Source of the DNA: Candidatus Iainarchaeum sp.
GTDB lineage: Archaea > Iainarchaeota > Iainarchaeia > Iainarchaeales > CSSED10-239
Assembly (NCBI GenBank): GCA_028700905.1
Contig: JAQVRT010000016.1
Span: 1-13,823 of the forward strand
Length of the DNA: 13,823 nucleotides
Direction of reading: 5' to 3'
Below are positions 1-13,823 of this stretch, piece by piece. How positions within the stretch are numbered: position 1 is the stretch's first letter; each line of letters opens with the position of its first letter. The notes beneath the pieces were generated by a model. The model saw only the letters and a list, made by a program, of their open reading frames with translations. It searched no databases and had not been told where the DNA came from. A program made the position numbers and the translations under genes.

Positions 1-327
1 ACTAGAAGTCTTCCAACAATTTACAAAGTTACAGGAGTTATTGATATGCCTTCTCCAGGAACTAATTATTATTTTTTAGTAACATCTGTTAAAAACGGAA
101 CTACTTTATATCCTGTTTCAAAAACTCAATGTGCACAATATAGTGTTTTAAAAGATCAATTAACTCAAGGTATGTTTATTGGTCCAATATCTTCAGAAGT
201 TACAGGTTATAATAATAAAAGTTTTACTTTAAGATTAATGATACAAAAGTATAGTAGTCAAAGTTTATGTCAAACTGGAAATAATTCTATTAGTATGACA
301 GGCAATATAGGAGAACTTTATAGTTAG
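1..327 (+). CDS. 3' end of a CDS running off the left edge; hypothetical exported/surface protein (C-terminal ~108 aa)
   Basis: Frame 1 is open from base 1 (TRSLPTIYKVTGVID precedes the first Met at 46) to TAG at 325-327, so the real start lies outside the window. It is on the same strand as the next gene and 17 bp upstream of it. No family recognised. Confidence 0.6.
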   Translation, partial: TRSLPTIYKVTGVIDMPSPGTNYYFLVTSVKNGTTLYPVSKTQCAQYSVLKDQLTQGMFIGPISSEVTGYNNKSFTLRLMIQKYSSQSLCQTGNNSISMTGNIGELYS

Positions 328-333
328 AGGGGG
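326..333 (+). promoter_or_regulatory. Shine-Dalgarno-like ribosome binding site for the 345 gene
   Basis: The sequence AGAGGGGG ends 11 nt before ATG 345. It is the only G-rich string in this AT-rich junction. Confidence 0.5.
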
Positions 334-344
334 AAAGTTTATTT

Positions 345-1751: not shown

Positions 1752-1765
1752 GATTAATTTCTTAA

Positions 1766-1794
1766 TTTCTTTTTCTTTTTTTATTTTGTTTTTT
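1766..1794 (+). terminator. Oligo-T tract, candidate archaeal-type intrinsic terminator of the 345-1751 gene
   Basis: TTTCTTTTTCTTTTTTTATTTTGTTTTTT begins 15 nt after the TAA stop. The same arrangement recurs after the other genes. Confidence 0.4.
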
Positions 1795-1956
1795 AAATTA
1801 AATACCTTTTTAAATAGTTAGGTGTATATTATATCTAAATAATATATTTATCTTTAAGAATAACAAGATATTAAAGATCTAATCTCTTTAATAATAAATC
1901 TTATATCTTTCTTAAAAATATATTACTTTAATGTAGTAAGTTAAAAGCTACATAAC

Positions 1957-1977
1957 TTGGTTTGATTTTCAAACCAA
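1957..1977. promoter_or_regulatory. Perfect 9-bp inverted repeat with 3-bp spacer (TTGGTTTGA ttt TCAAACCAA); candidate operator
   Basis: Verified base by base. It contains the local G/C in an otherwise A/T intergenic region. No T-run follows on either strand, so it is not terminator-like. It lies about 40 bp upstream of the putative TATA box of the regulator gene. Confidence 0.3.
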
Positions 1978-2014
1978 AAAACCTATTTCTTATGAAAAAT
2001 TTAAACCGAAGCTC

Positions 2015-2022
2015 TTTTAATA
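2015..2022 (+). promoter_or_regulatory. TATA-like box (TTTTAATA) that would give a leaderless or near-leaderless transcript of the 2049 gene
   Basis: It lies 27-34 nt upstream of ATG 2049, and no SD sequence is present. In DNA this AT-rich, such strings also occur by chance. Confidence 0.25.
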
Positions 2023-2027
2023 CTTTC

Positions 2028-2064
2028 ATGACATTATCATGATATATTATGACACAAAATGACA
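2028..2064 (+). promoter_or_regulatory. Four helically phased ATGAYA hexamers spanning the start codon of the regulator gene; candidate autoregulatory operator
   Basis: The hexamers are ATGACA (2028), ATGATA (2039), ATGACA (2049, which contains the start codon) and ATGACA (2059). Their spacing is 11, 10 and 10 bp. Confidence 0.3.
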
Positions 2065-2513
2065 ATATCACAAAACAGATATTTTTAGAAAAGTTATTAA
2101 AACAAGATACCAAAGAGCTGGGTTTGAATGATCTTATTCAGATCCAAGAGAAGTTTAACGATCCGTTGATACTTTCTGTAATATTACATCAACTTTTAGA
2201 AGAAAGAAAAAGAACAAACGAGATATTAAAAGACTTGTATGAAAAGTATGACTCTTTACAATTTTCTATTAAGAATAGTAAAGAATCTAGTAATTTAAAT
2301 CAAGATCAAGATACAATTAATATCTTACCAGAAATAGATGATAAAATAATTTCTTTTATAAGAGCAAATCAAAAAGTTGATGCAGAACAAGTACAAGAAG
2401 CATTTAATTATAAAGGATCAAATGCAGCTTCTCAAAGACTTAATAGACTAGTAAAAGAAGGATACTTACGAAAAGTTCAAGCAGGAAGAAAGGTATACTT
2501 TATTGTAAAATGA
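2049..2513 (+). CDS. Transcriptional regulator: N-terminal helical/coiled-coil region plus C-terminal winged helix-turn-helix (MarR/TrmB/ArsR-like fold class)
   Basis: 154-aa ORF. The C-terminal ~60 aa, DDKIISFIRANQKVDAEQVQEAFNYKGSNAASQRLNRLVKEGYLRKVQAGRKVYFIV, show the H1-H2-H3 pattern (recognition helix SQRLNRLVKEG) followed by a beta-hairpin wing (YLRKVQAGRKVYF). The ORF terminates at TGA, inside a hairpin. Confidence 0.8.
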   Translation: MTQNDNITKQIFLEKLLKQDTKELGLNDLIQIQEKFNDPLILSVILHQLLEERKRTNEILKDLYEKYDSLQFSIKNSKESSNLNQDQDTINILPEIDDKIISFIRANQKVDAEQVQEAFNYKGSNAASQRLNRLVKEGYLRKVQAGRKVYFIVK

Positions 2514-2540
2514 TTTTTCCCCTTAAAAATCATTTCCTTT
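2511..2540 (+). terminator. Hairpin overlapping the TGA stop (TGATTTTT-cccctt-AAAAATCA) followed by T-rich TTTCCTTT
   Basis: Perfect 8-bp stem with a 6-nt C-rich loop, verified by hand. The stem is almost entirely A:T, so its stability is low. Confidence 0.35.
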
Positions 2541-2567
2541 AAAAAAACCCCTTTAATATAGAAAAAC

Positions 2568-2596
2568 TGTAAAAAACCCCTTTTTTACATTTTTTT
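2568..2596 (+). terminator. Perfect 9-bp hairpin with CCCC loop (TGTAAAAAA-cccc-TTTTTTACA) followed by T7
   Basis: Verified base by base, and the T7 run at 2590-2596 follows immediately. It has the geometry of an intrinsic terminator, but the stem is all A:T apart from one G:C pair. Confidence 0.4.
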
Positions 2597-2680
2597 CAAA
2601 ATTTATACCTTTTTTCCTTCTTTTAAAAATAAGTTTTTGTCTTTTATTTTAGTCATTTAATTCCCCTCTAAAAAACTTTA

Positions 2681-2736
2681 AAAAAGATTGTAAGGAAAAC
2701 TTTTTTGTTTCTTTCCTTCTTCTTTTCTGCCCTTTA
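2681..2736. repeat. Copy 1 of a 56-bp intergenic direct repeat
   Basis: The sequence is AAAAAGATTGTAAGGAAAACtTTTTTGTTTCTTTCCTTCTTCTTTTCTGCCCTTTA. It matches copy 2 at 55 of 56 positions at an offset of 78 bp. It contains an internal inverted repeat, AAGGAAA ... TTTCCTT. Confidence 0.9.
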
Positions 2737-2758
2737 ATTATAAAAATACTTATTAAAA

Positions 2759-2814
2759 AAAAAGATTGTAAGGAAAACATTTTTGTTTCTTTCCTTCTTC
2801 TTTTCTGCCCTTTA
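2759..2814. repeat. Copy 2 of the 56-bp intergenic direct repeat
   Basis: Identical to copy 1 except for A at 2779 versus T at 2701. Confidence 0.9.
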
Positions 2815-2852
2815 TTTTTAACTTAAAAAACTATTTTTTAATTTTACAACTC

Positions 2853-2875
2853 TTTTTAAATATTTTGTATATATA
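2853..2875 (+). promoter_or_regulatory. TATA-like boxes (TTTTTAAATA, TATATATA) upstream of the 2969 gene
   Basis: They lie about 95-115 nt upstream of ATG 2969, implying a leader of roughly 70 nt. That leader contains a 7-bp inverted repeat (ATTGCTT ... AAGCAAT, about 2893-2920) and the RBS. Confidence 0.25.
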
Positions 2876-2948
2876 GATTTAATACTAATGAAATTGCTTT
2901 TTAACCTATTAAGCAATAAATTTAGATATAATTATTTTAAATTAAAAA

Positions 2949-2955
2949 GAAGGAG
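2949..2955 (+). promoter_or_regulatory. Shine-Dalgarno-like site GAAGGAG for the 2969 gene
   Basis: A GGAG core lies 13 nt upstream of ATG 2969, which is somewhat long spacing. Confidence 0.45.
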
Positions 2956-2968
2956 TTGACTTAAAAAT

Positions 2969-3304
2969 ATGAAACTAGAAAAAATTGGTGCATTTGCTTT
3001 TCTTGGTGGTATCTTAATTTCTATTATTTTTGGACTTATTTACAATATTAACCATCCAGTATGGCTTTCAACTGTTTTAATTATTTTAGGATTAGTTGTT
3101 GGTCTTTTAAACATTGAAGATAAAAATATATCTCTTTTCTTAATTGCATCCATTACATTTATTGCAACCAGTAACTCAATAAATGCAATACCTGTTATAG
3201 GAGATGTTTTAAGAGGAGTTTTAGTTAATTTAGTATACTTTGTAGCTCCAGCTGCATTAGTAGTTTCAATTGTTGCAATTATTAGAGTTTCAAACTCTAA
3301 ATAA
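2969..3304 (+). CDS. Small integral membrane protein, about four transmembrane helices, unknown function
   Basis: 111-aa ORF preceded by an RBS. Its hydrophobic stretches are IGAFAFLGGILISIIFGLIY, VWLSTVLIILGLVVGLL, ISLFLIASITFIA and VLVNLVYFVAPAALVVSIVAII, separated by short polar loops (NINHP, NIEDKN). Two T9 runs follow the stop codon. Confidence 0.85.
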   Translation: MKLEKIGAFAFLGGILISIIFGLIYNINHPVWLSTVLIILGLVVGLLNIEDKNISLFLIASITFIATSNSINAIPVIGDVLRGVLVNLVYFVAPAALVVSIVAIIRVSNSK

Positions 3305-3326
3305 TTCTTTTTTTTTCTTTTTTTTT
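3305..3326 (+). terminator. Oligo-T terminator candidate (T9-C-T9) directly after the TAA stop
   Basis: TTCTTTTTTTTTCTTTTTTTTT starts at the first base after the stop codon. Confidence 0.45.
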
Positions 3327-3445
3327 AAATAAAAATACATTTTTTATCTATAAATAATGAATATTTAAATATTTCTATTTATAGTATATTTACAGTATAT
3401 ATAAAAAACTTTATATAGTAATAAATATATAATATTAATATAATA

Positions 3446-3461
3446 TTTATAAATTTATAAA
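3446..3461 (+). promoter_or_regulatory. Tandem TTTATAAA TTTATAAA TATA-like boxes upstream of the giant gene
   Basis: They lie 13-28 nt upstream of ATG 3474, and no SD sequence is visible, which is compatible with a leaderless or short-leader mRNA. An alternative box, AAAAAC-TTTATATA, is at 3404-3417. The background is extremely A/T-rich, so specificity is weak. Confidence 0.25.
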
Positions 3462-3473
3462 TAAAGAAATAAT

Positions 3474-6400
3474 ATGGTTAAAGATAAAAATAATTTAGGC
3501 TCTAATGAAAACAATGAAAATAAACAAAATATTTTTTCAAGGTTTTATAACTATCTTGAAGATAAATATTCTTCTTTATCAAACTGGCTTACAGAAAAAG
3601 GAATACCATTAAATAATTTAAACAATTATTTAGAGGAAAAAGGACTTCCTGCTTTTGCAATAGTTGCATCTATTTTATTATTATTAATTTTTATAATTGT
3701 TTTCTTAATTATCTTTTCTTTTTCCAGTCAATCAACAATAACTTTTTCTGTAAAAGATTATTCTGGACTTTCAATAAATGATGCTTTTTTAAAAATTACA
3801 AATAGTTCTGGTAAGGAAATCTTTTCAGGAACTGTAAATGATAATGATGTTAAAAAAATAAAACTTAAATTAGGAGAATCTTATTCTTTTAAATCAACTA
3901 AAGATGGATATCCTGAATTTTCAAAATCAATAATTATTTCTGATAAAGATCAAAAAGTACAAATTACTTTTTTAGAATTAATTGAGTATGGTGTCTTAAA
4001 AATAAGATTAATAGATAGAGATAATAAAGGAATAATTACTTCAGGAACTGCAATCGCAAGATACACAATTAATAATGCTCCTGAGTCTACAGAAAACATT
4101 GTAAATATTGCAAATGATCATTTCATAACTTTAGAAGTTCCAATGAATAAAGATATTGAACTTTTAGTTAGTGCAGATGATTATGAAGATTTTAAAGAAA
4201 CAAATTTTAGAATAACTTTAGAAAATCAAGAAAAAGTTATTGAAATGGATATTTCTTCTTTATCTTTTGAAGGTAAAAGTCAAGTTACTTTTGTTGTTTT
4301 AGATACAGAAGAAAATCCAATTGATGATGCTTTAGTAAGTATATATAATCTTGGAGATGAATTACTAGATTCAAAAAATACAATTGATGGAAGAGCTTTA
4401 TCTTTTATTGATAGTGGTTCTACAATATCTTATAAAGTTGAAAAAGAAGGTTATAGAACATTTATAAGTGATCCTGAAGTTTCTTTTAGAATTACAAAAT
4501 CTGAAATAACTTATAATGTTACTTTAGAAGAAGGTGGAAACTTTTTAGATGTGTTTGTAAAATCTGGTTCTAATTTTTTATCTCTTGGAGATGTTGCAAT
4601 TACTGTTTATGATTTAAATAATAATATTATTAATTCTGGAAATACAGATGATTTAGGTAATTTAAAATTAACTGGTCTTTCTGATAAAGCTCCAATTGTT
4701 GTTACTGCTTGTAAAGAAGATTTCCTTTGTGAAAATTTAACAGTAGATCTTTTAGAAAAAAGTTCAGTTGAGTTTACTTTAGAAAGAATAGATGTTACAA
4801 ATAGTGCTATTCTGTCTGTTTTTGTTGTTGATGAAAAAAATTTACCAATCTCAAAAGCTTTTATAAAAATCTATCAATTATTACAAGATGAAAAAGAAGT
4901 TCCATACAACACATCTCTTCAAACTGATCTTACAGGTTCTCTTTCAGTACCTTTAAGAGTAGGAGATTCTTTTAGAGTATATTCATTAGTTGGAGAAGTT
5001 CAATATTTTGAAGATGTTACAATTGATGCTTTAAGAGAAAATAAAATAATTTTTGTAATGGATAATGCTTCTAAAATAATAAAATTAGATCTTTATGATG
5101 AAAATGGTTTTAAACTTACTTCAGGATCTTTACTTGTAAAAACAAAAGATGGAACTGTTCTTTTTGATGGTAATTTATCTGAAACAGATCAAGTAAGTTT
5201 TATTTCAGAAGGCTATAAAGATTTATATGCTGAATACACAGATGTTAATGGTAATAAATCTTCAATTAATTTTAATGCTGATGAATCTGAGTCAGATGGA
5301 TATATAAGACTTGATTTTAATAAAGAAGTTAATTTAACAGATTATCCTGTAATTGAGTTTTCAGGAATTGTAGATTCTAAAGGAGTCAAATCAAATTTTG
5401 TAACAATAGGTAAAGAATATTATTTAATTTTTGATGTTTTATTCCCAGAAAATACTTATAAAGGACAAGTACATATTAGAGCTGGTGATGATACTCAAGT
5501 TGATGTTGAAGAAATGAGTTATGGTATAACTGGTTTTTCTGCAATGGATATTTATGATTTTAAATATGGTACAACATATAATAGTTCTCCTCTTCCAGGT
5601 TTAATGAATATTGATCTTTTAAATGAAGGTTCTTCTCAAGTTTTAAATAAATGGCTTGAACTTAAATGGGATAGTGATGTTCCTTTAGGTAATAAACAAA
5701 TCAAAGTAAAAATAAATGTTACAGATGATTCTTATTCAAAATTAACTTTTAAATATAGAACTTTATTTGAAGAAAATAAATTATACTATAGAGATCCAGT
5801 TGACTCTTTATTAAACCAAAGTTATTCTTCACCTCAAAAAGGTGCTTTGTATGCTGACACAAAAGAAGTAAATATTGATGTTTATAATGTTCCTTTAGAT
5901 TGTGAAGGTTCTCAATGTGTTTCATATACTTTTATTGATTCAAAAGGAAATGAATTTTCAAAAGATGATTTCTATGCTGTAAGAGATGAAACTTATTTTT
6001 TAAAAGTAAGTCTTTATTCTTTAGATAATAAACAATTAGATCTTTTAGCAGAAACTTCAAAAAGTTTCCCTTTAATTTCATTTGGTTCTTTTTCAGATAA
6101 TCTTTATCAAAATGAAATAATAAATGATAATTCTTTGTTTGAAATTTCAAGAGATGGTTTTTTACTTTCTGAAAACTCTTTAAAAAATATTTATCTTTCA
6201 TTTATCTCAAAAGATATTGGTGCTGCATATATTGACCTTAAAGCAACAGATGTTATTTTAGGAAATGAAATTTTAAACAATAGATTAAGTTTTAATGTTT
6301 ATGATAAAAAAGAAATGAATGTTTTAGTTTCTCCAAGTAATTATGTTGATTATGGATCAAATTTTACTGTTGATGTTTTAGATTCAGTTTCTCTTGAACC

Positions 6401-9400
6401 TATAACAGATGCTTTTATTTCTTTTTATGATGTTAGAGATACTTTTATTTCTTCTTTAAAACCAAGTAATTCAAATGGAAGGAATGGAAAATATACTATT
6501 ACAAATAATTTTAATACTTCAATTGTTAAAATGGTAGTTGAAAGATATGGTTATCTTCCTTATGAAACTGAAATCTATATAATTGATAATACTTTATTAA
6601 ATGCAATTCCTTCAGAAATAATTTTTAATTTAGGTCTTGATCAAACAGCATCAACTTCAAACTTTAGTTTAGAAAACTTAGGTAATTATCAAGCAACAAA
6701 TGTAAGGTTTGGAGAACCAATTTGGATTGAAGGTAGTGCTGGTATTTATCTTGAAGGAAGAGGTAATCCAATAATTAATAAAAACTCAACTCAAAATTAT
6801 CAACTTTTATTAACAACAGACAATGATCTTGAACTTACAACTGCATATGCACATCTTCCAATATATGCAAATATTGGTCCTAGAGAGGTTACAAAAATAT
6901 TAAATGTTAGAATAAATAAAGGTTTAATGTTAAATGAATGTGTTGAAATTACTCCTTCAGAAGTTTCTTCTTTTGTTGGACTAAATGTTTCTTCAAATTA
7001 TGCAGATCCATTTAATACTCCTTTTACAGATTATGATTATACTTCAAATACTTCAAATAATCCTATGCTTGCTCCTTCTCAAAGTTATTCTAATTATGAA
7101 GAATATCTAAATTCAAGTGGATATAACATTACTGATTCAACAGATAATAGTTATACTTACACAGATTCTTCCAATTATACTTATCATGCAACTTCTCCTG
7201 CTCTTAATTCTCAAATTACTGAAAACACAACTTATTTTACAATTAAAAATAATTGTTCTCAAGCTATAACTTTTAATCCTCAAGCAGTTTTAACTTCTTC
7301 ATCATCAAATAATAATTTAGAAGTTTCTCTTGCAAATGTAACTATTCTTCCAGGAGAAGAAAAAGTTTATGATGTTATTTTAAAAAATTCATCTGAACTT
7401 AAAAGAAAAACAACATATACTTATAATATTTTATGGCATAATAATTATTATTCAATAGCTCCTTCAGTTTTAAATGTTGATCTTTTAGATTTAAGTAGAG
7501 CTTTATGGGTTATGCCACAACAAATAAATGTTCCAATCTCTCAAGTACATCCTCAACAAGCTGCTGAAAATTATACTAGATTTTTTATTAAAAATATAGG
7601 TGCTGTTCCAATAACTGATATACAAATAAGTCAGTATCCAAAAATGGTGTCTTCTAATATTAAAATTACTGAATATCCAAGACAAGTATCTGTTTTAGAA
7701 CCAGGAAAAACAATTCCTGTTGATTTAAAATTTTCTGTAAATATTAATAAATCTACATTAGATAATGCTTTAATACAAGTAACTGGTAAAGCTGTTGGTA
7801 TTAGTGAACCAATAATTTCAACAACACAATTAGTGTTTTCAATTTCTTCTCCAAATTGTTTAAAAGTAAGTAATAAAAATATTAATTTTGATTTAGAAGT
7901 TGGGGAAACAAGAGCAAGAAATATTACAATTACAAATCAATGTTCTGAACCTGTTACAATAGTTGGTATTGATAAAAAACAACAAGGATATTATCAAGCA
8001 TATGGGGATAATTCTTTTAGAATAATTCCAGCTTCTGGTAATCCAATAATTCCTGTTAACATGTCAAATACTTATAGAATAGAGTTTACTGCAAATTCTT
8101 TAGGTGGTTCTCCAAAAACACCAATGATACTTCAAGGTAGATTAATGAATTCAGGTAATCCTGTAACTTCAGAAGAGGTTTTAGTTTCAATAACTATAGA
8201 TGATATAATGGTTGGAGAAGAAGCTGAAAGAAATATTTCTATTTTATCTTCTCTTCCTTCTTGTGAAGATCCACAAAATATTAATTCATATAATAGACCA
8301 TTAATTTCAATTAAAGATTGTTCTGAAACTTCAGGATATTGTGATGGAGAATCTTCAGCTGAATTAATTTTAAAGAAAGTAAATGAACTTCAAAATGAAA
8401 TTAAACAATTTTCTGCACAAACACAATCAAAAGTAATTGATACTGGTTGTACTCTTCAAGATGCATATAGTGGTTTTTGTAAGATATCTGAACTTGGTGG
8501 AGGAATTGATCCTGTTGAGTTTTCTTTCTTTATGCAAAATGATAATGTTACACCTGATTTAATTAAAGAAATTTTAAAAAAATCAAATTATTCTTTTAAA
8601 AATTATTTTGTTGAAACAAATATTTTTAATAAAGAAATTAAAACTATAGATCAATATTCTTCTTATGGGGTATATGCTGGTGGAAATAAATTATTTGTCT
8701 CTCCTCACCTATCAGGTTGTGGAAAATACACAGTAGAGATTGATGGTTATGTTGCTGCAAGTCCAGATTATATTTATCCTGAAAGAGCATATTATTATAT
8801 TAATGTTGTAGAAAAAGATACTAACACAATTCACTGTGAGAAAAATATTGTAAATTATTTAAATTATCTTCCATGGGATCTTTCTTTTAATAAAAACCAA
8901 AGAGCAGGAACTTGGCTTACTTTATTTACTGGTGATGAAAATTTATCAAAAGCTTTAATTAAAAGTGTGGGTAAGTTTAAGTCAGATGAAATTGATTTAA
9001 GATATGTTTATAATAAAGATGTTTTATCTACAAGAAATAGTACATTAAATGTTTCAACTGGAGAGATTTCTGAAAATAAAGAAGCTCTTGCAAAGATTTC
9101 TTTTAATGATACTTCTTTAAGAAAAAGCTCTTCTCCTGAGCAAATAGATATTACTTTAAATTCTCTTTATAATTCTCCTGAGGGTAAAACTTCTGAGTAT
9201 GCTATTAAAGATTTTTCAAAAGTAATTTCTTCAATGATTTCAGATAATGATTATTCTGCAAAAGTTTGTATTTCTGAAGATAAAACATATATGCTTGTTT
9301 TAGATGTTATTTCAGCAGGAGATTTAACTTTTGTTGATAAAGAAATAAGTCTTCCTTTAAAGGATGGACCTTCATGTTCTTTATTAAAAGTTAAGTCAGC

Positions 9401-11453
9401 AGTTCCTGAAACTTTAAAGATTACTTCTGATTCTTTAGAGTTTGCAAATATTGGTTTTAAGAAAACTAAAAATGATACTCTTCAAGAAACACTAGATGTT
9501 AGTGTTATTGCAAATAAAGATTCTAACTTTTATATGTGTGTAACTCCAAATTCAGATATTGCAATCTCAGCTCTTGTTGATAAAAAAATAACTGTAACAG
9601 CAACAAGTATTTATTCTGCAAGTGGTAGTGTTGGAAATAGAAGCACAACTGCAGAAGTAGCTTTCTCTTCATGTGCAATCACACCTGAAGATTATCTTTT
9701 AGGTATTTATTCAAATATTTTAACTGAAAATAATAAAGTTGAAGATGATAGAGTATTACCTCAAAATTATACAGCTATTGTAGATTGGGATAAACAATAT
9801 AATCCTGAAGAAAAAGAAAAATTATGTTCTACTTTACAAAAGATTGTAAATAGTAAAAAGTATAATGGAGAACTTTTCTTTGATTATGAAGTTTTAGGTT
9901 GTGAGCTTGAAGATTCTTCACAAGAAAGAGATTCAAGGTTAAATAAAGCACTTACAAATGCTGGTGCATATTTCTTAAGATGTTCTGTTGTTTGTGCTGG
10001 ATGTTATGGGCTTACAGCACTTGTAATGCCTATATCTCTTGGAGGTATTGGTATTGATTGTTTAGGTTTTTCATGTGGTATTTCTTCTATCCTAGTATTT
10101 GCATCTACATATACTGGTGAAGATAAAGGTATTAATTGGATTTTAGATCAATTGTTAGCAAAATTATTAGGAAATGATGAATTTAAATTCTTTGAACCTT
10201 TATTTGGAGAAGTTAAAGATTGGATTTCAGGTGTTGCTGGTTCTTTTATGGCAGGATTTTCTAAAACTGGATCTTCTGCAGCTGCAACTCCGTTAACTTT
10301 TAAAGAACAATTAATAGATTTAGGCGTTGATGTAACTACAACTCCACAAGCACCTCCAGCAAATACTTTAACTGGTTTAGAAGGTAATGAATTAAAGAAT
10401 TTTAATAGTCAAGTTAAAAACTTTAGTAAATATTTTAGTGGTGCAGATAAAACTAGGTTTATACCTACAGGTAATAATGATAAATCTGTTTTTCTAAAAT
10501 TAATTACTAAATCTTCAACATCTAATGGAGGAATATTTACTTTTGATCCTTCAAAATTATCTCCAACTGAGCTTGATGAACTTTCTGGTATTGTAAAAAG
10601 AGGAACTCTCACAGGAAAATATGCTCATATGGTTGACAAAGATATATTTGTTAAAAGACTTACTAAATATAAAGTAAATTTATCTTCTGGTACTTCTTCT
10701 GGACTTACAAATCCAGGTGGCGTATCTGGTTTTACAACTTTAGAACCAGATGTTCGTGATAATTTATTAAAAGTTATTGATGGTTCTAGTGATTCAAAAG
10801 GACTTATTAAAGAAGCAGATGATTCTATTAAAGTTTTAGAAAAAAAAATAGCTGATCTTAAAAAGAATAATGATAGATCTTTATTTAATCCTAAAAAAGT
10901 AAAAGCTGATCCAAATAAAATAACTGCTCTTGATAGGGCTGCAAGAAAAGCATCTTCAGATATTGCAAGTTTAGAAAAAGAACTTGAAAAAGTTAAAGTA
11001 CAAAAAGCATCTTTACAAAATATAAGTAATAAAATTAAAAATGTTGTTCCAGATAAATCTGGGAATTATTTAGTTCCAGATGAAGTTTTAGATGATTTAT
11101 CTAAAACAAATGGTTCAAAAATGACTGTTGCAAAAAGTAAAGCAAAGTGGGTTAGAGGTGTTGGTGGTTTTGTAAGAGGTTTTGGTTGTGGTCTTTTAGG
11201 TAATATGGTTGGAATTAATGCTTTAAAAGAAGAAGGTAAAACAGGACTTAATAAATCAATAGAGTTTTTAAGTAAAAATGATTTTGAGAAAAATATATTC
11301 TATGTCTCTGAAGTTGATATGTTATCTCCAGAAAATGATCAAGAGTATGAAACAAGATATACAATTAATATAAAACCTTATATCTCTCAAGATCAAAGTA
11401 TTATTTCTTCAATTCCTACAAAAAGAATTGATTCTTGTACTATAGAAGAATAA
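3474..11453 (+). CDS. Giant (2,659 aa) membrane-anchored multidomain cell-surface protein; putative adhesin or host-interaction protein
   Basis: Uninterrupted 7,980-nt ORF. It has an N-terminal cytoplasmic motif plus a TM anchor, tandem beta-sandwich repeats, Ig-like modules, an S/T/N/Y-rich linker, C-terminal Gly/Cys-rich hydrophobic segments and a heptad-repeat region. A T-tract follows the stop codon. The only other ORFs in this interval are short, low-complexity, antisense ones. Confidence 0.95.
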   Translation: MVKDKNNLGSNENNENKQNIFSRFYNYLEDKYSSLSNWLTEKGIPLNNLNNYLEEKGLPAFAIVASILLLLIFIIVFLIIFSFSSQSTITFSVKDYSGLSINDAFLKITNSSGKEIFSGTVNDNDVKKIKLKLGESYSFKSTKDGYPEFSKSIIISDKDQKVQITFLELIEYGVLKIRLIDRDNKGIITSGTAIARYTINNAPESTENIVNIANDHFITLEVPMNKDIELLVSADDYEDFKETNFRITLENQEKVIEMDISSLSFEGKSQVTFVVLDTEENPIDDALVSIYNLGDELLDSKNTIDGRALSFIDSGSTISYKVEKEGYRTFISDPEVSFRITKSEITYNVTLEEGGNFLDVFVKSGSNFLSLGDVAITVYDLNNNIINSGNTDDLGNLKLTGLSDKAPIVVTACKEDFLCENLTVDLLEKSSVEFTLERIDVTNSAILSVFVVDEKNLPISKAFIKIYQLLQDEKEVPYNTSLQTDLTGSLSVPLRVGDSFRVYSLVGEVQYFEDVTIDALRENKIIFVMDNASKIIKLDLYDENGFKLTSGSLLVKTKDGTVLFDGNLSETDQVSFISEGYKDLYAEYTDVNGNKSSINFNADESESDGYIRLDFNKEVNLTDYPVIEFSGIVDSKGVKSNFVTIGKEYYLIFDVLFPENTYKGQVHIRAGDDTQVDVEEMSYGITGFSAMDIYDFKYGTTYNSSPLPGLMNIDLLNEGSSQVLNKWLELKWDSDVPLGNKQIKVKINVTDDSYSKLTFKYRTLFEENKLYYRDPVDSLLNQSYSSPQKGALYADTKEVNIDVYNVPLDCEGSQCVSYTFIDSKGNEFSKDDFYAVRDETYFLKVSLYSLDNKQLDLLAETSKSFPLISFGSFSDNLYQNEIINDNSLFEISRDGFLLSENSLKNIYLSFISKDIGAAYIDLKATDVILGNEILNNRLSFNVYDKKEMNVLVSPSNYVDYGSNFTVDVLDSVSLEPITDAFISFYDVRDTFISSLKPSNSNGRNGKYTITNNFNTSIVKMVVERYGYLPYETEIYIIDNTLLNAIPSEIIFNLGLDQTASTSNFSLENLGNYQATNVRFGEPIWIEGSAGIYLEGRGNPIINKNSTQNYQLLLTTDNDLELTTAYAHLPIYANIGPREVTKILNVRINKGLMLNECVEITPSEVSSFVGLNVSSNYADPFNTPFTDYDYTSNTSNNPMLAPSQSYSNYEEYLNSSGYNITDSTDNSYTYTDSSNYTYHATSPALNSQITENTTYFTIKNNCSQAITFNPQAVLTSSSSNNNLEVSLANVTILPGEEKVYDVILKNSSELKRKTTYTYNILWHNNYYSIAPSVLNVDLLDLSRALWVMPQQINVPISQVHPQQAAENYTRFFIKNIGAVPITDIQISQYPKMVSSNIKITEYPRQVSVLEPGKTIPVDLKFSVNINKSTLDNALIQVTGKAVGISEPIISTTQLVFSISSPNCLKVSNKNINFDLEVGETRARNITITNQCSEPVTIVGIDKKQQGYYQAYGDNSFRIIPASGNPIIPVNMSNTYRIEFTANSLGGSPKTPMILQGRLMNSGNPVTSEEVLVSITIDDIMVGEEAERNISILSSLPSCEDPQNINSYNRPLISIKDCSETSGYCDGESSAELILKKVNELQNEIKQFSAQTQSKVIDTGCTLQDAYSGFCKISELGGGIDPVEFSFFMQNDNVTPDLIKEILKKSNYSFKNYFVETNIFNKEIKTIDQYSSYGVYAGGNKLFVSPHLSGCGKYTVEIDGYVAASPDYIYPERAYYYINVVEKDTNTIHCEKNIVNYLNYLPWDLSFNKNQRAGTWLTLFTGDENLSKALIKSVGKFKSDEIDLRYVYNKDVLSTRNSTLNVSTGEISENKEALAKISFNDTSLRKSSSPEQIDITLNSLYNSPEGKTSEYAIKDFSKVISSMISDNDYSAKVCISEDKTYMLVLDVISAGDLTFVDKEISLPLKDGPSCSLLKVKSAVPETLKITSDSLEFANIGFKKTKNDTLQETLDVSVIANKDSNFYMCVTPNSDIAISALVDKKITVTATSIYSASGSVGNRSTTAEVAFSSCAITPEDYLLGIYSNILTENNKVEDDRVLPQNYTAIVDWDKQYNPEEKEKLCSTLQKIVNSKKYNGELFFDYEVLGCELEDSSQERDSRLNKALTNAGAYFLRCSVVCAGCYGLTALVMPISLGGIGIDCLGFSCGISSILVFASTYTGEDKGINWILDQLLAKLLGNDEFKFFEPLFGEVKDWISGVAGSFMAGFSKTGSSAAATPLTFKEQLIDLGVDVTTTPQAPPANTLTGLEGNELKNFNSQVKNFSKYFSGADKTRFIPTGNNDKSVFLKLITKSSTSNGGIFTFDPSKLSPTELDELSGIVKRGTLTGKYAHMVDKDIFVKRLTKYKVNLSSGTSSGLTNPGGVSGFTTLEPDVRDNLLKVIDGSSDSKGLIKEADDSIKVLEKKIADLKKNNDRSLFNPKKVKADPNKITALDRAARKASSDIASLEKELEKVKVQKASLQNISNKIKNVVPDKSGNYLVPDEVLDDLSKTNGSKMTVAKSKAKWVRGVGGFVRGFGCGLLGNMVGINALKEEGKTGLNKSIEFLSKNDFEKNIFYVSEVDMLSPENDQEYETRYTINIKPYISQDQSIISSIPTKRIDSCTIEE
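3534..3722 (+). other. N-terminal anchor module: FY-x3-E-x-KY, two copies of an EKG[IL]P-type motif, then a single TM helix (aa ~59-83)
   Basis: The sequence is FSRFYNYLEDKYSSLSNWLTEKGIPLNNLNNYLEEKGLPAFAIVASILLLLIFIIVFLIIFSF. The same module opens the CDS at 13373. Confidence 0.75.
3735..5320 (+). repeat. Six tandem, diverged ~80-90-aa beta-sandwich repeats (carboxypeptidase-regulatory-like / PEGA-like pattern)
   Basis: The recurrent pattern is h-x-h-x-V-x-D, then a P-I-x-x-A-x-h-x-h segment, then a [TN]-D-x-x-G segment, then G-[DE]-S/x-[YF] and finally an x-x-x-[GD]-Y segment. Examples are ITFSVKDYSGLSINDAFLKI...STKDGY, SQVTFVVLDTEENPIDDALVSIY...VEKEGY and AILSVFVVDEKNLPISKAFIKIY. The family assignment is by pattern only. 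Confidence 0.6.
6315..6586 (+). other. Seventh, isolated copy of the same beta-sandwich repeat
   Basis: MNVLVSPSNYVDYGSNFTVDVLDSVSLEPITDAFISFYDV...VVERYGYLPYETEIYII follows the same pattern as the repeats at 3735-5320. Confidence 0.5.
6606..8200 (+). other. About four Ig-like modules with an [FY]-x-[IL]-x-N-x-[GC]-x-x-x-[IV] strand motif (CARDB / PapD-like style)
   Basis: The motif instances are NFSLENLGNYQATNVRF, TYFTIKNNCSQAITFNP, TRFFIKNIGAVPITDIQI and ARNITITNQCSEPVTIVGI. Each is followed roughly 40-60 aa later by an L-x-PG-E/K or equivalent strand. This is a pattern-level call only. Confidence 0.4.
6990..7215 (+). repeat. Low-complexity S/T/N/Y/D-rich linker with many N-x-S/T sequons
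   Basis: The sequence is SSNYADPFNTPFTDYDYTSNTSNNPMLAPSQSYSNYEEYLNSSGYNITDSTDNSYTYTDSSNYTYHATSPALNSQ. Confidence 0.7.
9960..10295 (+). other. C-terminal Gly/Cys/Ala-rich hydrophobic segments (two putative TM or re-entrant helices plus an amphipathic Gly-rich segment)
   Basis: AGAYFLRCSVVCAGCYGLTALVMPISLGGIGIDCLGFSCGISSILVFASTY spans aa ~2163-2213. WISGVAGSFMAGFSKTGSSAAATPL starts at aa ~2250. Confidence 0.55.
10810..11045 (+). other. Heptad-repeat (coiled-coil) region
   Basis: In IKVLEKKIADLKK and ITALDRAARKASSDIASLEKELEKVKVQKASLQNISNKIKNV, the a/d positions are mostly I, L, V or A over about six heptads, by hand registration. Confidence 0.55.
11148..11225 (+). other. Glycine-zipper-like hydrophobic segment near the C-terminus
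   Basis: WVRGVGGFVRGFGCGLLGNMVGINAL contains repeated G-x-x-x-G / G-x-G spacing. It is followed by a polar tail of about 75 aa. Confidence 0.5.
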
Positions 11454-11476
11454 TTCTTTTCTTTTTTTATTTTTTT
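11454..11476 (+). terminator. Oligo-T terminator candidate directly after the giant gene stop
   Basis: TTCTTTTCTTTTTTTATTTTTT starts at the first base after the TAA stop. Confidence 0.45.
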
Positions 11477-11511
11477 AGTAAAAAGAAATATATAAAAATA
11501 TAAACATCTTA

Positions 11512-11519
11512 TTTATATT
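11512..11519 (+). promoter_or_regulatory. TATA-like box TTTATATT upstream of the 11563 gene, with a GGTG SD-like tetramer at 11549-11552
   Basis: The box lies 44-51 nt upstream of the ATG, and GGTG lies 10 nt upstream of it. An alternative box, ATATATAAAA, is at about 11488-11497. Confidence 0.25.
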
Positions 11520-11562
11520 AGTTAATATAATATATTAAAGATATAATTGGTGTTATATAATC

Positions 11563-11652
11563 ATGTTAAAAAATAAAAAAGGATTTAATTTATTTACTGC
11601 TTTAATCTCATTGATGCTTTTATCAATAACTCTAGTTTTTATTTTTAATATG
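11563..11652 (+). other. Prepilin-type (class III) signal peptide and N-terminal hydrophobic helix
   Basis: The KK-G-F junction is at aa 5-8, followed by NLFTALISLMLLSITLVFIF. Glu+5 is absent, as in archaeal pilins and bacterial GspK/PilX-like minor pilins. Residue +2 is Asn, which is atypical, so the cleavage call is tentative. Confidence 0.55.
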
Positions 11653-13242
11653 GTTCAAACTGAAGAAAATTATTTAGAATTAATAAATAATCAATCTCAA
11701 GCTTCTGACCTCTTAACAATTGCAGATATTTCAAGAGCTGATGCTTTTAATAATTTTGTTGTTTCTTTTAGAGAACAATGGATGTCTTTTAGAAGTGACT
11801 CTGATTCTGAAATTAGACTTACAAGAAAAGATATTATGCTTGATTGGGATAATTTTGTAGATTATTTTGCAGATTATATTTTCTTTGATAATAATTTTGA
11901 AGATCATTTTGCACGTAATATGGTAGAATCTTTAAATTATACAAATCCACCAACAGGTTATGATATAGATGTTCCTACTTATTCTCCTTATGAATTATCT
12001 AGAATTATTAAAAAAGCTTTTCTTGCAGCTGGAGATGATAAAATAAAAGTTGTAAGTTGTGAAAGAAAAGATGAGGTTTGTTTAGGTACACTTTATTTTA
12101 CAATTGATACTAGAAAACTTTCTGCAGAAGAATATGAAACACTTCCAATGATAACTGTTAAAAGAAATGTTGATGATGAAGTTATTCAAAGACCAGTTTT
12201 TGCAAAAAGAGCATACAGGATATATATACCTTGGAGAGGATTTCAAGCTTTAAGAACTGTTAGAAATTTTGCACTTGATGCTGATCTTGAAAAAAGAGAA
12301 ACAACTTCTGAAATTATTGAAAATTCAAAAGATTCAAGAGGTTTTTTTAATCCTTATATTCATTATACTCTCAATAGTGCAAAACTTGGTGTGTGTGATA
12401 TTGATAGTTGTGCTCTAAGAAAAGATTTATTTAAAACTGTTGAGTTAAATGGGTTTACTGGAGCTACATGTTCTAATCCTCCTGAAGTTAGTAATGTTTC
12501 TGACAATGGAGGAATTTCTGTCCCTTTTGCAGGAAGAGTTTCTCTTTCTAATACTACTCATAGTTACAAAATTCAAGATATAGATGGAACTGTGAAACCA
12601 ATATATAATGATTTAGTTAAGACTACTATAAAGAATAATTTAGAAAATAGAAGTGATACAATACATGCAGGAAAAAAATTGCCATCAATCTATTCTTCTT
12701 CTTCAATTTTAGATGATGAATGTCAAATGCCTTTAACAATAAATGGTTTTTCAATATGTAATATACGTGTAAGACTTCCTTCTCCAAAAGTTACAAAAGA
12801 AGTAACTTCTGTAGGAGCTGTTTCAGAATCTTTAAGTAATTTATTTCCAGTTTCATTTAATCCTTCTGGTTTTAATAAAGCTTCAAACTTAAGTCTCTCT
12901 ATTGATGATTATTATAATATTAATGTTTTTGATCAAGAAAGTATTCCTAATCAAACTAATTATCAATATCTATCATGTACAACTATTGATTATATTGATT
13001 TATTATTTAAATTTGAAGAACAAGATGAAAAATATATCTTTTCTGAAGATTCAAAAAATATTTATATTCAGATATCAGATAGATTTTCAGATTATACTTT
13101 CTTTACTTCATCTGAAAGCGTTCCTACCTTTAATGGAGGATATTTTCAAAAAAAAGATCTTCCTTTATTTACAGGTGGAAATGGTTGGACTTGTAAAAGT
13201 TATGAAGAAAATGAAGATGATGCAGCATGTATAGCAGGCTAA
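11563..13242 (+). CDS. Large pilin-like (class III / prepilin-type signal peptide) exported protein with a Cys-rich globular domain; putative pilus-tip or minor-pilin adhesin
   Basis: 559-aa ORF. Its N-terminus MLKNKKG|FNLFTALISLMLLSITLVFIFNMV has a basic stretch, then Gly, then Phe+1 and a hydrophobic helix of about 22 aa, resembling the G|F-T-L-I-E prepilin motif but with Thr instead of Glu at +5. By hand count there are 10 Cys. No other TM segment is present. Confidence 0.85.
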   Translation: MLKNKKGFNLFTALISLMLLSITLVFIFNMVQTEENYLELINNQSQASDLLTIADISRADAFNNFVVSFREQWMSFRSDSDSEIRLTRKDIMLDWDNFVDYFADYIFFDNNFEDHFARNMVESLNYTNPPTGYDIDVPTYSPYELSRIIKKAFLAAGDDKIKVVSCERKDEVCLGTLYFTIDTRKLSAEEYETLPMITVKRNVDDEVIQRPVFAKRAYRIYIPWRGFQALRTVRNFALDADLEKRETTSEIIENSKDSRGFFNPYIHYTLNSAKLGVCDIDSCALRKDLFKTVELNGFTGATCSNPPEVSNVSDNGGISVPFAGRVSLSNTTHSYKIQDIDGTVKPIYNDLVKTTIKNNLENRSDTIHAGKKLPSIYSSSSILDDECQMPLTINGFSICNIRVRLPSPKVTKEVTSVGAVSESLSNLFPVSFNPSGFNKASNLSLSIDDYYNINVFDQESIPNQTNYQYLSCTTIDYIDLLFKFEEQDEKYIFSEDSKNIYIQISDRFSDYTFFTSSESVPTFNGGYFQKKDLPLFTGGNGWTCKSYEENEDDAACIAG

Positions 13243-13304
13243 ATTCACTTTTTAATGTTAATAAAAAGGTATTTAAATGTATAAGCACTATAATTATATA
13301 ACAA

Positions 13305-13340
13305 ATAACATAGTTTTTAAAAGATTATGTTATAAAAATA
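13305..13340 (+). promoter_or_regulatory. 8-bp inverted repeat (ATAACATA n13 TATGTTAT) abutting a TATA-like box (TATAAAAATA)
   Basis: The arms are at 13305-13312 and 13326-13333, verified by hand. The TATA-like string at 13331-13340 lies 33-42 nt upstream of ATG 13373. An SD-like GAGAGATGA is at 13361-13369. Confidence 0.25.
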
Positions 13341-13372
13341 TAATATATTATAATATATACGAGAGATGATTT

Positions 13373-13823
13373 ATGGGTCTTAGATCTTTTTACTTTAAAC
13401 AAGAAGAAAAATATTTTAATTTTCTAGACAGAATGGAGAAAAAAGGAATTAATCTATACAAAATAGTAGATCCTTTAGAAAAGAATGGTATACCTACTTT
13501 TTTAGTATTTAATATATTTATTCTACTTTTAATTTTATTTTTAGTTTATTTATTTATTGGACAAACTCCATTAACTGATGAAAACTATACTTTAACTTTT
13601 GTAGATTCTCAAGACCAGCCAATCTCAAATCAAGCAATTGAAATTCTTCTTAATAATAATAGAAAGATTTTAAACACTAATGAATTTGGAATTTCAGAAA
13701 TTACAGATGTTGAAATTAAATCTTATGATTTAGAAATAAGTAGTGAAAAGTATACTCTTGAAAATCCATTAACTTTAGATTTTAAAGAAAACACTTCTCA
13801 TAAGATATTTTTAAAATCAAAAA
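13373..13823 (+). CDS. 5' end of a second membrane-anchored surface protein (paralogous N-terminal module, TM anchor and first beta-sandwich repeat); runs off the right edge
   Basis: This ORF is absent from the supplied track because it has no stop codon in the window. Hand translation gives MGLRSFYFKQEEKYFNFLDRMEKKGINLYKIVDPLEKNGIPTFLVFNIFILLLILFLVYLFIGQTPLTDENYTLTFVDSQDQPISNQAIEILLNNNRKILNTNEFGISEI..., with 150 codons open to the edge. It aligns without gaps to aa 21-62 of the giant protein. Confidence 0.8.
   Translation, partial: MGLRSFYFKQEEKYFNFLDRMEKKGINLYKIVDPLEKNGIPTFLVFNIFILLLILFLVYLFIGQTPLTDENYTLTFVDSQDQPISNQAIEILLNNNRKILNTNEFGISEITDVEIKSYDLEISSEKYTLENPLTLDFKENTSHKIFLKSK

Follow-up and report, generated by a model that had tools for sequence, protein, structure and literature searches.

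The described systems nearest to the one considered here, the C-terminal region of a giant protein of 2,659 amino acids (aa) encoded on a 13,823-nucleotide (nt) stretch of DNA from Candidatus Iainarchaeum sp. (contig JAQVRT010000016.1, positions 1 to 13,823; called the window below), are VARTIG, SPEARE, polymorphic toxins, tape-measure proteins of the Pb2 type and glycine zippers; none of them shows homology to it, and none has the same combination of features. Phage T5 Pb2 contains a coiled coil, hydrophobic segments and a C-terminal muralytic domain, and transmembrane (TM) glycine zippers, with the pattern GxxxGxxxG, were reportedly described by Kim et al. in 2005. The phage tape-measure protein TM4 Tmp likewise has a coiled coil, hydrophobic segments and a muralytic domain (PMC1796659). 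VARTIG (arCOG07710) is a large Ig-domain protein of Thermococcales with a recombination-driven hypervariable C-terminal region, for which no counterparts have been reported outside Thermococcales (Makarova et al., 2021; PMC8416519). SPEARE proteins of Nanohaloarchaeota are giant and mostly extracytoplasmic, with a C-proximal anchor and a cytoplasmic nuclease end, and have been proposed to act in host attachment or penetration (Hamm et al., 2019; PMC6642349). Our preferred reading of the region, to which we give a probability of about 40%, is that it is a C-terminal module of 'hairpin - stalk - head' type, shared by an unannotated family of giant surface proteins in DPANN-type archaea, with a hairpin that re-anchors the ectodomain in the cell's own membrane. 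That the module is real, conserved, largely extracytoplasmic and strain-variable, and that it lies on an arm of the protein facing other cells, is well supported. The layout of the protein and its module is as follows.

3474-11453, + strand: giant open reading frame (ORF) of 2,659 aa, carrier of the module, a single uninterrupted frame on translation.
3648-3722, + strand: N-terminal membrane anchor (aa 59-83), the sole strongly hydrophobic segment, with a duplicated KG[IL]P motif before it.
9969-10046, + strand: hairpin helix 1 and turn (aa 2166-2191; YFLRC...SLGG), with a YF start, C2170/C2174/C2177 and the turn PISLGG.
10047-10112, + strand: hairpin helix 2 (aa 2192-2213; IGIDC...ASTY), with D2195-C2196...C2201-G and an aromatic/acidic boundary at its end.
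10128-10286, + strand: amphipathic helices after the hairpin (aa 2219-2271), hydrophobic moment (muH) 0.21-0.47, including a Gly/Ala/Phe stretch.
10287-10799, + strand: fast-evolving spacer, made of a Thr/Pro-rich linker and a small alpha/beta sub-domain (aa ~2325-2440).
10800-10877, + strand: heptad helix A (aa 2443-2468), a/d pattern I2445, A2448, I2452, L2455, I2459, L2462.
10917-11042, + strand: heptad helix B (aa 2482-2523), heptad scan score 1.0 over aa 2473-2517.
11148-11225, + strand: Gly/Cys/Asn amphipathic helix, the 'glycine zipper' (aa 2559-2584; WVRGVGG...INAL), with a basic flank and the family motif G[FL]x[RK]GxxCGxLGNxxG.
11226-11450, + strand: C-terminal beta tail (aa 2585-2659), with R-I-D-x-C at its end and 100% identity to the protein of Candidatus Forterrea multitransposorum (nonsynonymous divergence, dN, 0; synonymous divergence, dS, 0.10).

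A sequence-only reading of the window had singled out four segments of this region, at aa 2166-2191, 2192-2213, 2253-2271 and 2559-2584, and each of them lies exactly there; the second hydrophobic region starts ~2,082 residues after the N-terminal anchor (counted from aa 59-83), in agreement with the ~2,080 given by that reading. The first two segments have the layout of an ordinary TM hairpin, in which apolar stretches of ~20 residues (aa 2166-2185 and 2192-2213) flank a PISLGG turn. Relatives show the same layout, with arms of ~19-21 residues each between an aromatic boundary (YF; Y/W then acidic) and a P/G-rich turn. The cysteines of helix 1 are spaced CX3CX2C, in positions i, i+4 and i+7 on one helix face, and are kept in 16/16 aligned sequences. 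The family consensus of helix 2 is DCGxxCG[IV]P, and the hairpin as a whole reads CX3CX2C...DCxxxxCG.

Hydrophobicity was calculated as simple 19-residue sums on the Hessa and Wimley-White (WW) octanol scales; all values below are approximate and differ in nature from the output of a topology predictor. The N-terminal anchor scores -7.6 kcal/mol on the Hessa scale and -19.2 on the octanol scale, against +2.9 kcal/mol and -3.1 for the first Cys/Gly segment (aa 2166-2191; muH 0.06), +3.2 kcal/mol and -4.2 for the second (aa 2192-2213; muH 0.11), and +6.3 kcal/mol and -0.1 for the last Gly-rich segment (aa 2559-2584; muH 0.34). The hairpin arms are thus non-amphipathic and the glycine-zipper helix is amphipathic, and the earlier statement that these segments are unlike ordinary TM anchors is borne out by the sums on both scales. 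Across the family, the best 19-residue segment of the second region ranges from +0.5 to +6.8, compared with -1 to -8 for the N-terminal TM helix. The Gly/Ala/Phe stretch (GVAGSFMAGFSKTGSSAAA, GVAGSF...AAA; aa 2253-2271, nt 10230-10286), with a WW value of +2.3, is too weak for a membrane span.

Between the amphipathic helices and the end of the protein, the module differs in minor points from what had been proposed. Pairwise identity in the spacer is only 17-40% among the window and two related loci (L001 and L002, described below), and its sub-domain bears the conserved motif 'ELD[DE]L..I...G.[FL]TG'. A coiled coil of ~75 aa had been predicted ~180 aa beyond the Gly/Ala/Phe stretch: heptads are present, 172 aa beyond it, but they form two helices of 25 and ~40 aa (aa ~2443-2468 and ~2482-2523) and not a single coil, being parted by a 16-residue proline-containing loop (DRSLFNPKKVKADPNK). 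In the heptad scan, the cut-off of 0.7 was reached within the module only at aa 2473-2517; the pattern of helix A was read from the scan output and the translation. The last segment does carry the announced zipper pattern (G2565-x3-G2569-x3-G2573, then G2576-x3-G2580), on one helix face and conserved in the family, but R2561, R2568 and N2577 lie inside it and it is amphipathic. It thus shares with TM glycine zippers the alignment of conserved glycines on one face, and differs from them in its amphipathy, its Arg, Arg and Asn residues, its cost of +6.3 kcal/mol and its fusion to a beta tail. It is probably a packing or surface helix rather than a channel-forming TM helix.

Of all family motifs, that of this helix is the most conserved: alignment A1 shows no variation at C2572, G2576 and G2580; in the larger alignment A2, G2576 alone is fully invariant and C2572 and G2580 are near-invariant. 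The helix is preceded by a basic, Trp-containing flank (mean net charge ~+4 across the family), and the tail that follows is ~75 aa long in the family, of beta type, and terminates in R-x-D-x-C, with C2655 present in 15/16 aligned sequences. Seven cysteines of the module, an odd count, are near-invariant: C2170, C2174, C2177, C2196 and C2201 (9981-10076), C2572 (11187-11189) and C2655 (11436-11438). The conservation of C2572 and C2655 suggests a disulfide staple between helix and tail. The last residues of the protein are ...RIDSCTIEE, and its hydrophobic region stops 446 aa short of them. An exosortase/archaeosortase sorting signal, which consists of a motif, a TM segment and a basic cluster at the extreme C-terminus, was rejected because of this position; an exosortase-family gene neighbours one relative only (L009).

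An AlphaFold2 (AF2) monomer model of aa 2101-2659, based on an 18-sequence alignment (mean predicted local distance difference test, pLDDT, 62.7), contains helices at aa 2149-2179, 2192-2214, 2220-2232, 2240-2265, 2444-2468, 2485-2522 and 2558-2587, and tail strands at aa 2595-2598, 2610-2617 and 2628-2635. The helices at aa 2220-2232 and 2240-2265 are of low to moderate confidence, and that at aa 2444-2468 has a pLDDT of 57-88 (means of 10-residue blocks). The short-spacer relative P0009, modelled as a test of co-folding between hairpin and head, gave a pLDDT of 50.9 and was uninformative. Foldseek matches of the module model in PDB and BFVD all had E values of 0.16 or more, and searches of the PDB with the sequence and with the family profile returned generic coiled coils only. 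Pfam, NCBIfam and PHROG scans, run on the giant protein and on the module by itself, revealed nothing relevant, and no toxin family was matched in these library scans. Word-indexed protein searches returned nothing for the module or the tail, and only the fragment P0013 for the profile, in an index that apparently lacks the Forterrea protein. A phage tape-measure protein was rejected as an identity for the giant protein, which has no PHROG match, no tblastn match among 50,697 phage records and only BFVD tape-measure hits with E of at least 0.8; a scan of viral contigs was likewise empty.

The resemblance to class I fusion proteins that had been suggested from composition does not hold. The order of the parts is wrong, and there is no match to fusion proteins in fold or sequence. 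In class I proteins the fusion peptide is adjacent to the heptads; here the hairpin ends at aa 2213 and the first heptad helix begins at aa 2443, 230 aa away. The Gly-rich helix, 35 aa after the last heptad helix, is not TM-grade as a C-terminal anchor should be, and the true anchor is at aa 59-83.

By contrast, the expectation that the module would be conserved in orthologues was confirmed. An exhaustive HMMER search, with the final 1,200 aa of the giant protein as query, delineated an unannotated family of 60 cluster representatives, most of 2,400-3,400 aa, with a common architecture: an N-terminal TM helix at ~aa 45-80, kept in nearly all full-length members, an ectodomain of ~2,000 aa and a second, marginal hydrophobic region at ~aa 2,000-2,200. 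Local hidden Markov models (HMMs) detected the hairpin unit in 27/60 representatives and the helix-plus-tail unit in 25/60; both are present in 20/60, always in the same order, a recurrence that chance would not produce. The spacer between hairpin and head varies from 146 aa (P0009) to 2,115 aa (P0039) in HMM-match coordinates; its sequence is not conserved and is often Thr/Pro-rich, and the heptad helices are usually at its end. The number of ectodomain cysteines is 20 in five orthologues. Like SPEARE, the window protein is a giant, mostly extracytoplasmic DPANN protein with a hydrophobic element near one end, and the genomes that encode SPEARE likewise contain FlaI/FlaJ/pilin-type genes. Unlike SPEARE, to which no sequence similarity was found, it lacks protease, laminin-G and restriction-endonuclease domains and is anchored N-terminally, and the C-terminal additions of its relatives are extracellular wall hydrolases.

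These additions provide a clue to topology. Murein hydrolase domains lie behind the tail in at least five representatives (NlpC/P60, Amidase_3 and Glucosaminidase in P0052, NlpC/P60 in P0012 and P0006, SLT in P0035 and P0015). At least 13 further representatives (P0016, P0018, P0022, P0024, P0026, P0028-P0030, P0034, P0037, P0042, P0047 and P0051) end in a common 'PEALLV...GC...I.CAA...Y..W' domain without Pfam match, which hhalign links to the SLT domains of P0015, P0035 and P0038 (probability 80%, E = 1.4e-5) and which is degenerate, the catalytic Glu-Ser...GLMQ stretch being absent. The P0035 gene adjoins a gene for an ATPase best matching archaeal FlaI, a T2SSF-type platform gene and an exosortase/archaeosortase-family gene, and the FlaI-like ATPase places at least one hydrolase-bearing member in an archaeal context. 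Archaea are not known to have murein. Bacteria are killed by some peptidoglycan hydrolases of archaea (PMC12352652). Taken together, the hydrolases behind the tail, the absence of murein from archaea and the existence of such bacteria-killing enzymes indicate that the C-terminus very probably lies on the extracytoplasmic side and acts on a different cell. The relatives resemble the bacteria-targeting enzymes in being archaeal-context proteins with NlpC/P60, Amidase_3, Glucosaminidase or SLT domains, and differ from them in that these domains are appended behind the module to a giant anchored protein instead of forming small secreted enzymes. The family as a whole also recalls the tape-measure/Pb2 proteins by its long helices, marginal hydrophobic helices and terminal peptidoglycan hydrolase; here, however, there is no phage gene context, the module ends a membrane-anchored ectodomain of 2,000 aa, and the window protein has no hydrolase.

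In two relatives, Thr/Pro-rich mucin-like spacers directly precede the Gly/Cys helix (P0008, with TTPKPTTTTT repeats, and P0032), which suggests, from their composition, that the spacer is outside as well. With both spacer and C-terminus outside, the Gly/Cys helix would not be a single span, and the hairpin region would cross the membrane either zero or two times. The distribution of charges leaves room for another arrangement, in which the Cys-rich region crosses the membrane once (a TM helix followed by a re-entrant half-helix), the spacer and heptads lie in the cytoplasm, the Gly/Cys helix provides a third TM span and the tail, with the hydrolases in relatives, is external. This polytopic arrangement is kept alive by the basic flank before the Gly/Cys helix and the net-basic, cysteine-free spacer: the flank after this helix is neutral to acidic, as the positive-inside rule would have it, and the spacer exceeds both ectodomain and tail in basicity and is devoid of cysteine, of which the ectodomain has ~20. 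CG[IV]P could moreover break helix 2 into a re-entrant element, and SPEARE offers a precedent for a C-proximal TM helix in a giant DPANN protein (PMC6642349). We nevertheless consider it improbable, as the Gly/Cys helix, amphipathic and with two Arg and one Asn, would make a poor TM span (Hessa +6.3), the mean charges flanking the hairpin (+1.4 before, -1.4 after) have the wrong sign for a single outside-to-inside crossing, the mucin-like repeats before the helix in P0008 and P0032 look extracellular, and no cytoplasm-type domain was found in any spacer. No domain indicating a compartment was found in the spacers of long relatives, and the density of N-glycosylation sequons in the spacer shows no clear departure from expectation.

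If the hairpin region crosses the membrane zero times, the Cys/Gly/Ala-rich helices may have no membrane role at all and instead form the core of a soluble extracellular helical domain, disulfide-stapled or metal-binding through the seven cysteines. These near-invariant cysteines are set on helix faces (i, i+4, i+7), helix 1 of a sub-group consists mostly of Ala, Gly, Ser and Thr with one Gln (e.g. CAAACGVCQGAAAIATVG) and is hardly membrane-like, beta segments of the ectodomain match the hairpin on the octanol scale, and the conserved number of ectodomain cysteines suggests that disulfides are used. On the other hand, a Pro/Gly turn between two uninterrupted, apolar, non-amphipathic stretches of ~20 residues with aromatic residues at their limits is what textbooks describe for a hairpin in a bilayer, AF2 gives no confident compact bundle, and the conserved cysteines are odd in number. 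A purely soluble module is therefore quite unlikely in our view.

In the own-membrane reading that we prefer, everything beyond the N-terminal anchor would be exported, and the two helices of ~20 residues would insert as a helical hairpin into the membrane of the producing cell, with the short turn alone in the cytoplasm; the hairpin would thus staple the far end of the ectodomain to that cell. Spacer and heptad helices would form an external stalk, and the amphipathic helix would pack on the beta tail as a small head, which, together with wall-cutting enzymes in relatives, would be the part presented to the partner cell. An own-membrane hairpin is favoured by the length of the arms, their aromatic boundaries and the Lys present in the turn of most relatives (Lys or Arg in 10/16 aligned sequences). 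The widely varying length of the spacer fits a stalk better than a unit that inserts together with the hairpin, and a Hessa value of +6.3, two Arg and one Asn, and a muH of 0.34 argue that the head is not a TM span.

Several observations weigh against this preferred reading. The hydrophobicity sums are crude, each hairpin arm is weak (~+3 kcal/mol), and some beta-rich segments of the ectodomain equal the hairpin on the octanol scale. The hairpin turn has no Lys or Arg in the window and five aligned relatives, nor in L001 and L002, which lie outside the 16-sequence alignment. The basic flank (~+4) before the Gly/Cys helix would fit an inside-to-outside TM helix equally well, and the net-basic, cysteine-free spacer is unlike the ectodomain. 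The AF2 models are mediocre (pLDDT 62.7 and 50.9), the window protein itself has no hydrolase, and the strain variation described below involves only two cassette types, the cassette of the window being read from assembled sequence.

The same export of the module is compatible with insertion into a partner membrane rather than the cell's own, the module being kept soluble or shielded at the distal tip until host contact, when the hairpin, possibly with the Gly/Cys helix, would insert. Such behaviour would liken it to the hydrophobic hairpins of colicin, the diphtheria-toxin T domain, XaxA-type pore formers and phage T5 Pb2, and the hydrolases of relatives would first open the wall. The marginal hydrophobicity found throughout the family is what a segment needs to cross Sec without stopping, and an Asp is conserved at the hairpin turn. 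Acid-triggered toxin hairpins carry Asp at the turn. Murein hydrolases on the same polypeptide point to the envelope of another cell, strain-level replacement of the cassette would fit an interface under conflict, and XaxA/YaxA and tape-measure proteins are among the non-significant fold matches. DPANN archaea live as ectosymbionts, and a symbiotic life is predicted for Forterrea (PMC5905446). However, there is no significant similarity in fold or sequence to pore formers, fusion proteins or tape measures, a spacer of 146 to ~2,100 aa is hard to reconcile with co-insertion of the hairpin and the Gly/Cys helix, the Lys in the turn of most relatives fits co-translational insertion into the own membrane, and the tail shows 100% conservation between strains although in this reading it would form the outermost tip. 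We regard partner-membrane insertion as a possible but rather unlikely alternative. Its more elaborate form, in which the module is a device for penetrating the host envelope, the hairpin and Gly/Cys helix inserting in the partner membrane after murein digestion in relatives and nucleating a pore or cytoplasmic bridge by which these cells of minimal metabolism would feed, and the cassettes reflecting an arms race or host-surface specificity, we regard as unlikely.

The variation between strains escaped the sequence-only reading, although it nearly coincides with the coordinates flagged there, and takes the form of a single cassette.

9930-11220, + strand: divergent cassette (aa ~2153-2583).

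In a genome scan, the sole match among species representatives was Ca. Forterrea multitransposorum (CP045477.1, locus L001), a DPANN (Diapherotrites) archaeon from Crystal Geyser (PMC5905446). Its giant gene encodes 2,671 aa, with ~97% identity to the window protein outside the cassette. In 100-aa blocks of aa 1-2100 identity is 88-100%, in most of them at least 96%, and it is still 98% over aa 2101-2150; it declines from ~aa 2153, to 52% over aa 2151-2215 and only 22-44% in the 100-aa blocks between aa 2201 and 2600, and returns to 100% over aa 2601-2659, the identity beginning at KEEGK (~aa 2585). At the DNA level, identity to L001 and L004 in 30-nt windows falls from 0.97-1.0 to ~0.7 at nt ~9930 and recovers at ~11220, and blastn of the window against Forterrea gave no alignment over nt 10193-11169. 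The four Forterrea-type sequences (L001 and L003-L005; counterpart of the cassette in L001, 10030-11366) have 22-52% protein identity to the window in the cassette and 91-100% in its flanks. The metagenome contigs L003-L005 all carry the Forterrea-type cassette, 97-100% identical to that of L001. Both versions of the cassette retain every motif of the module and its architecture, and a third type was not found among the sequences searched.

Inside the cassette dS is 0.48-0.74, about tenfold the 0.04-0.10 found outside, and dN/dS is near 1 but saturated; the G+C content at third codon positions (GC3), only ~6% in the giant gene (3474-11450), limits the trust that can be placed in such synonymous-rate estimates. 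A foreign base composition of the cassette was rejected, as GC3 is 6.3% both within it and in the rest of the gene. From these properties, the cassette would seem to be a diverged allele of some age that came from a similar genome, not the product of rapid change in place. The more distant syntenic relative L002 (~70% DNA identity) is closer to the window in the hairpin and heptad/Gly-helix regions (47-66% identity) than the window is to Forterrea (27-52%), and for this reason the window seems to hold the 'vertical' version of the cassette and the reference strains a more foreign one. Cassette-like divergence is absent from neighbouring genes. In the preferred reading, this pattern would reflect homologous recombination between diverged alleles of the exposed arm, and homologous recombination is documented in Forterrea populations (PMC5905446). 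An origin by a diversity-generating retroelement was rejected: there is no repeat of the cassette in the window and no reverse transcriptase among its ORFs, and a divergence of 1.3 kb far exceeds the variable region of such elements, which makes this origin an unlikely fit.

The cassette, as distinct from the module, could also be an assembly chimera, in which 1.3 kb from a related organism was joined during metagenome assembly. Its boundaries are sharp, the scaffold gaps of L002 fall in exactly the giant gene, and the Forterrea paper itself cautions that apparently strain-variable regions can be local misassemblies (PMC5905446). This explanation is very improbable, since Forterrea-like flanks on both sides would require two precise in-frame joins, since the frame, all conserved motifs and the GC3 (6.3% in both parts) are intact, and since the cassette of the window occurs in no other sequence of the collections searched, the nearest being that of L002 (17-66% by sub-segment).

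The comparison with VARTIG bears on this variation. Both are large archaeal surface proteins with a conserved body and a C-terminal part that differs among close relatives by recombination, followed by conserved partner genes. The variable part is here a helical/linker hairpin-stalk-helix module and not an Ig domain, the architecture is the same in both alleles, the extreme C-terminus is 100% conserved, downstream genes do not co-vary and the lineage is DPANN; membership in VARTIG was rejected because, despite recombination-like hypervariability, the variable part has no Ig domain and the organism belongs to DPANN. Polymorphic toxins and contact-dependent inhibition (CDI) systems (PMC3482391) are likewise giant exported proteins with a conserved body and a C-terminal region replaced by recombination between strains. 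In the window protein, however, the variation affects an internal region, for which the strains have alleles of one and the same module instead of different toxin domains, and no toxin domain, demarcating motif or co-varying immunity gene was recognised. A toxin-immunity reading was also rejected, given that the downstream gene does not co-vary with the cassette, and that the last 74 aa are identical and the motifs the same in both alleles.

The window and L001 are syntenic, with a shared order of a ~460-aa secreted protein, a 154-aa winged helix-turn-helix (wHTH) protein, a 111-aa membrane protein, the giant gene, a 559-aa gene and a second giant. The genes adjoining the giant gene are the following.

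2969-3304, + strand: multi-TM protein of 111 aa, upstream, 100% identical to L001; L010 has a gene of the same size in the same position.
11563-13242, + strand: 559-aa downstream gene with a prepilin-like N-terminus (MLKNKKGFNLFTALISL...) that weakly matches ComGF; middle gene of a triad.
13374-13823, + strand: start of the second giant gene, a paralogue whose N-terminal motif is the same (duplicated ...KG[IL]P, then TM).

The 559-aa gene is ~90% identical between cassette types, with small indels only, and shows no co-variation with the cassette. Its position is kept in the distant metagenome contigs L006, L007, L009 and L010, where the whole triad (module-bearing giant, protein of 545-600 aa with a prepilin-like N-terminus, second giant) is conserved. 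In L009 the triad adjoins genes for a FlaI-like ATPase, a T2SSF platform protein and an exosortase/archaeosortase-family protein, a setting that hints at a tie to a type IV filament machine. The Forterrea copy of the second giant (L001 13519-20490) has 2,323 aa, and a check of this protein showed that the hairpin/helix module is not present in it. In both giants of the window, the KG[IL]P before the N-terminal helix (3474-3722 and 13374-13570) resembles a class III prepilin-type cleavage site and is a candidate for one; the leader ahead of it is unusually long (~57 aa).

Some further features of the locus can be mentioned. The G+C content of the window is ~26%. The 468-aa secreted protein (345-1751) matches phage tail-fibre PHROGs via its repeat region (phrog_892, E = 3e-10) and is 81% identical to its Forterrea counterpart, compared with 100% for the two genes that follow it (154 aa and 111 aa). 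Two copies of a 64-nt direct repeat, with 95% identity, occupy 2680-2743 and 2758-2821 (78 nt start-to-start) in the intergenic region upstream of the 111-aa gene; the repeat also appears as a secondary blastn match in Forterrea loci. Three genes are followed by similar T-rich tracts (TTTTCTTTTTTTATTTT...), at 1771-1804, 3300-3340 and 11449-11490, which may be archaeal-type terminators.

In conclusion, the protein is a giant, apparently recombination-diversified archaeal surface protein, which is a known concept, and the module is a new domain family. Few molecules are known that serve the ultra-small DPANN archaea in attachment to other cells and in the uptake of resources from these, and the family delineated here, widespread and so far without annotation, consists of giant anchored proteins with a C-terminal module of conserved architecture. 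This module brings together murein hydrolases in relatives, a pilin-like three-gene unit, in one case beside archaeal type IV filament genes, and cassette exchange in a natural population, and with seven conserved cysteines and two conserved motifs it offers a bounded target of ~500 aa. If it proves to be only a second membrane anchor, the gain would be modest and consist of a new domain family together with a surface protein that varies between strains. These observations would also extend recombination-driven hypervariability of archaeal surface proteins, so far represented by VARTIG of Thermococcales, to the DPANN archaea.

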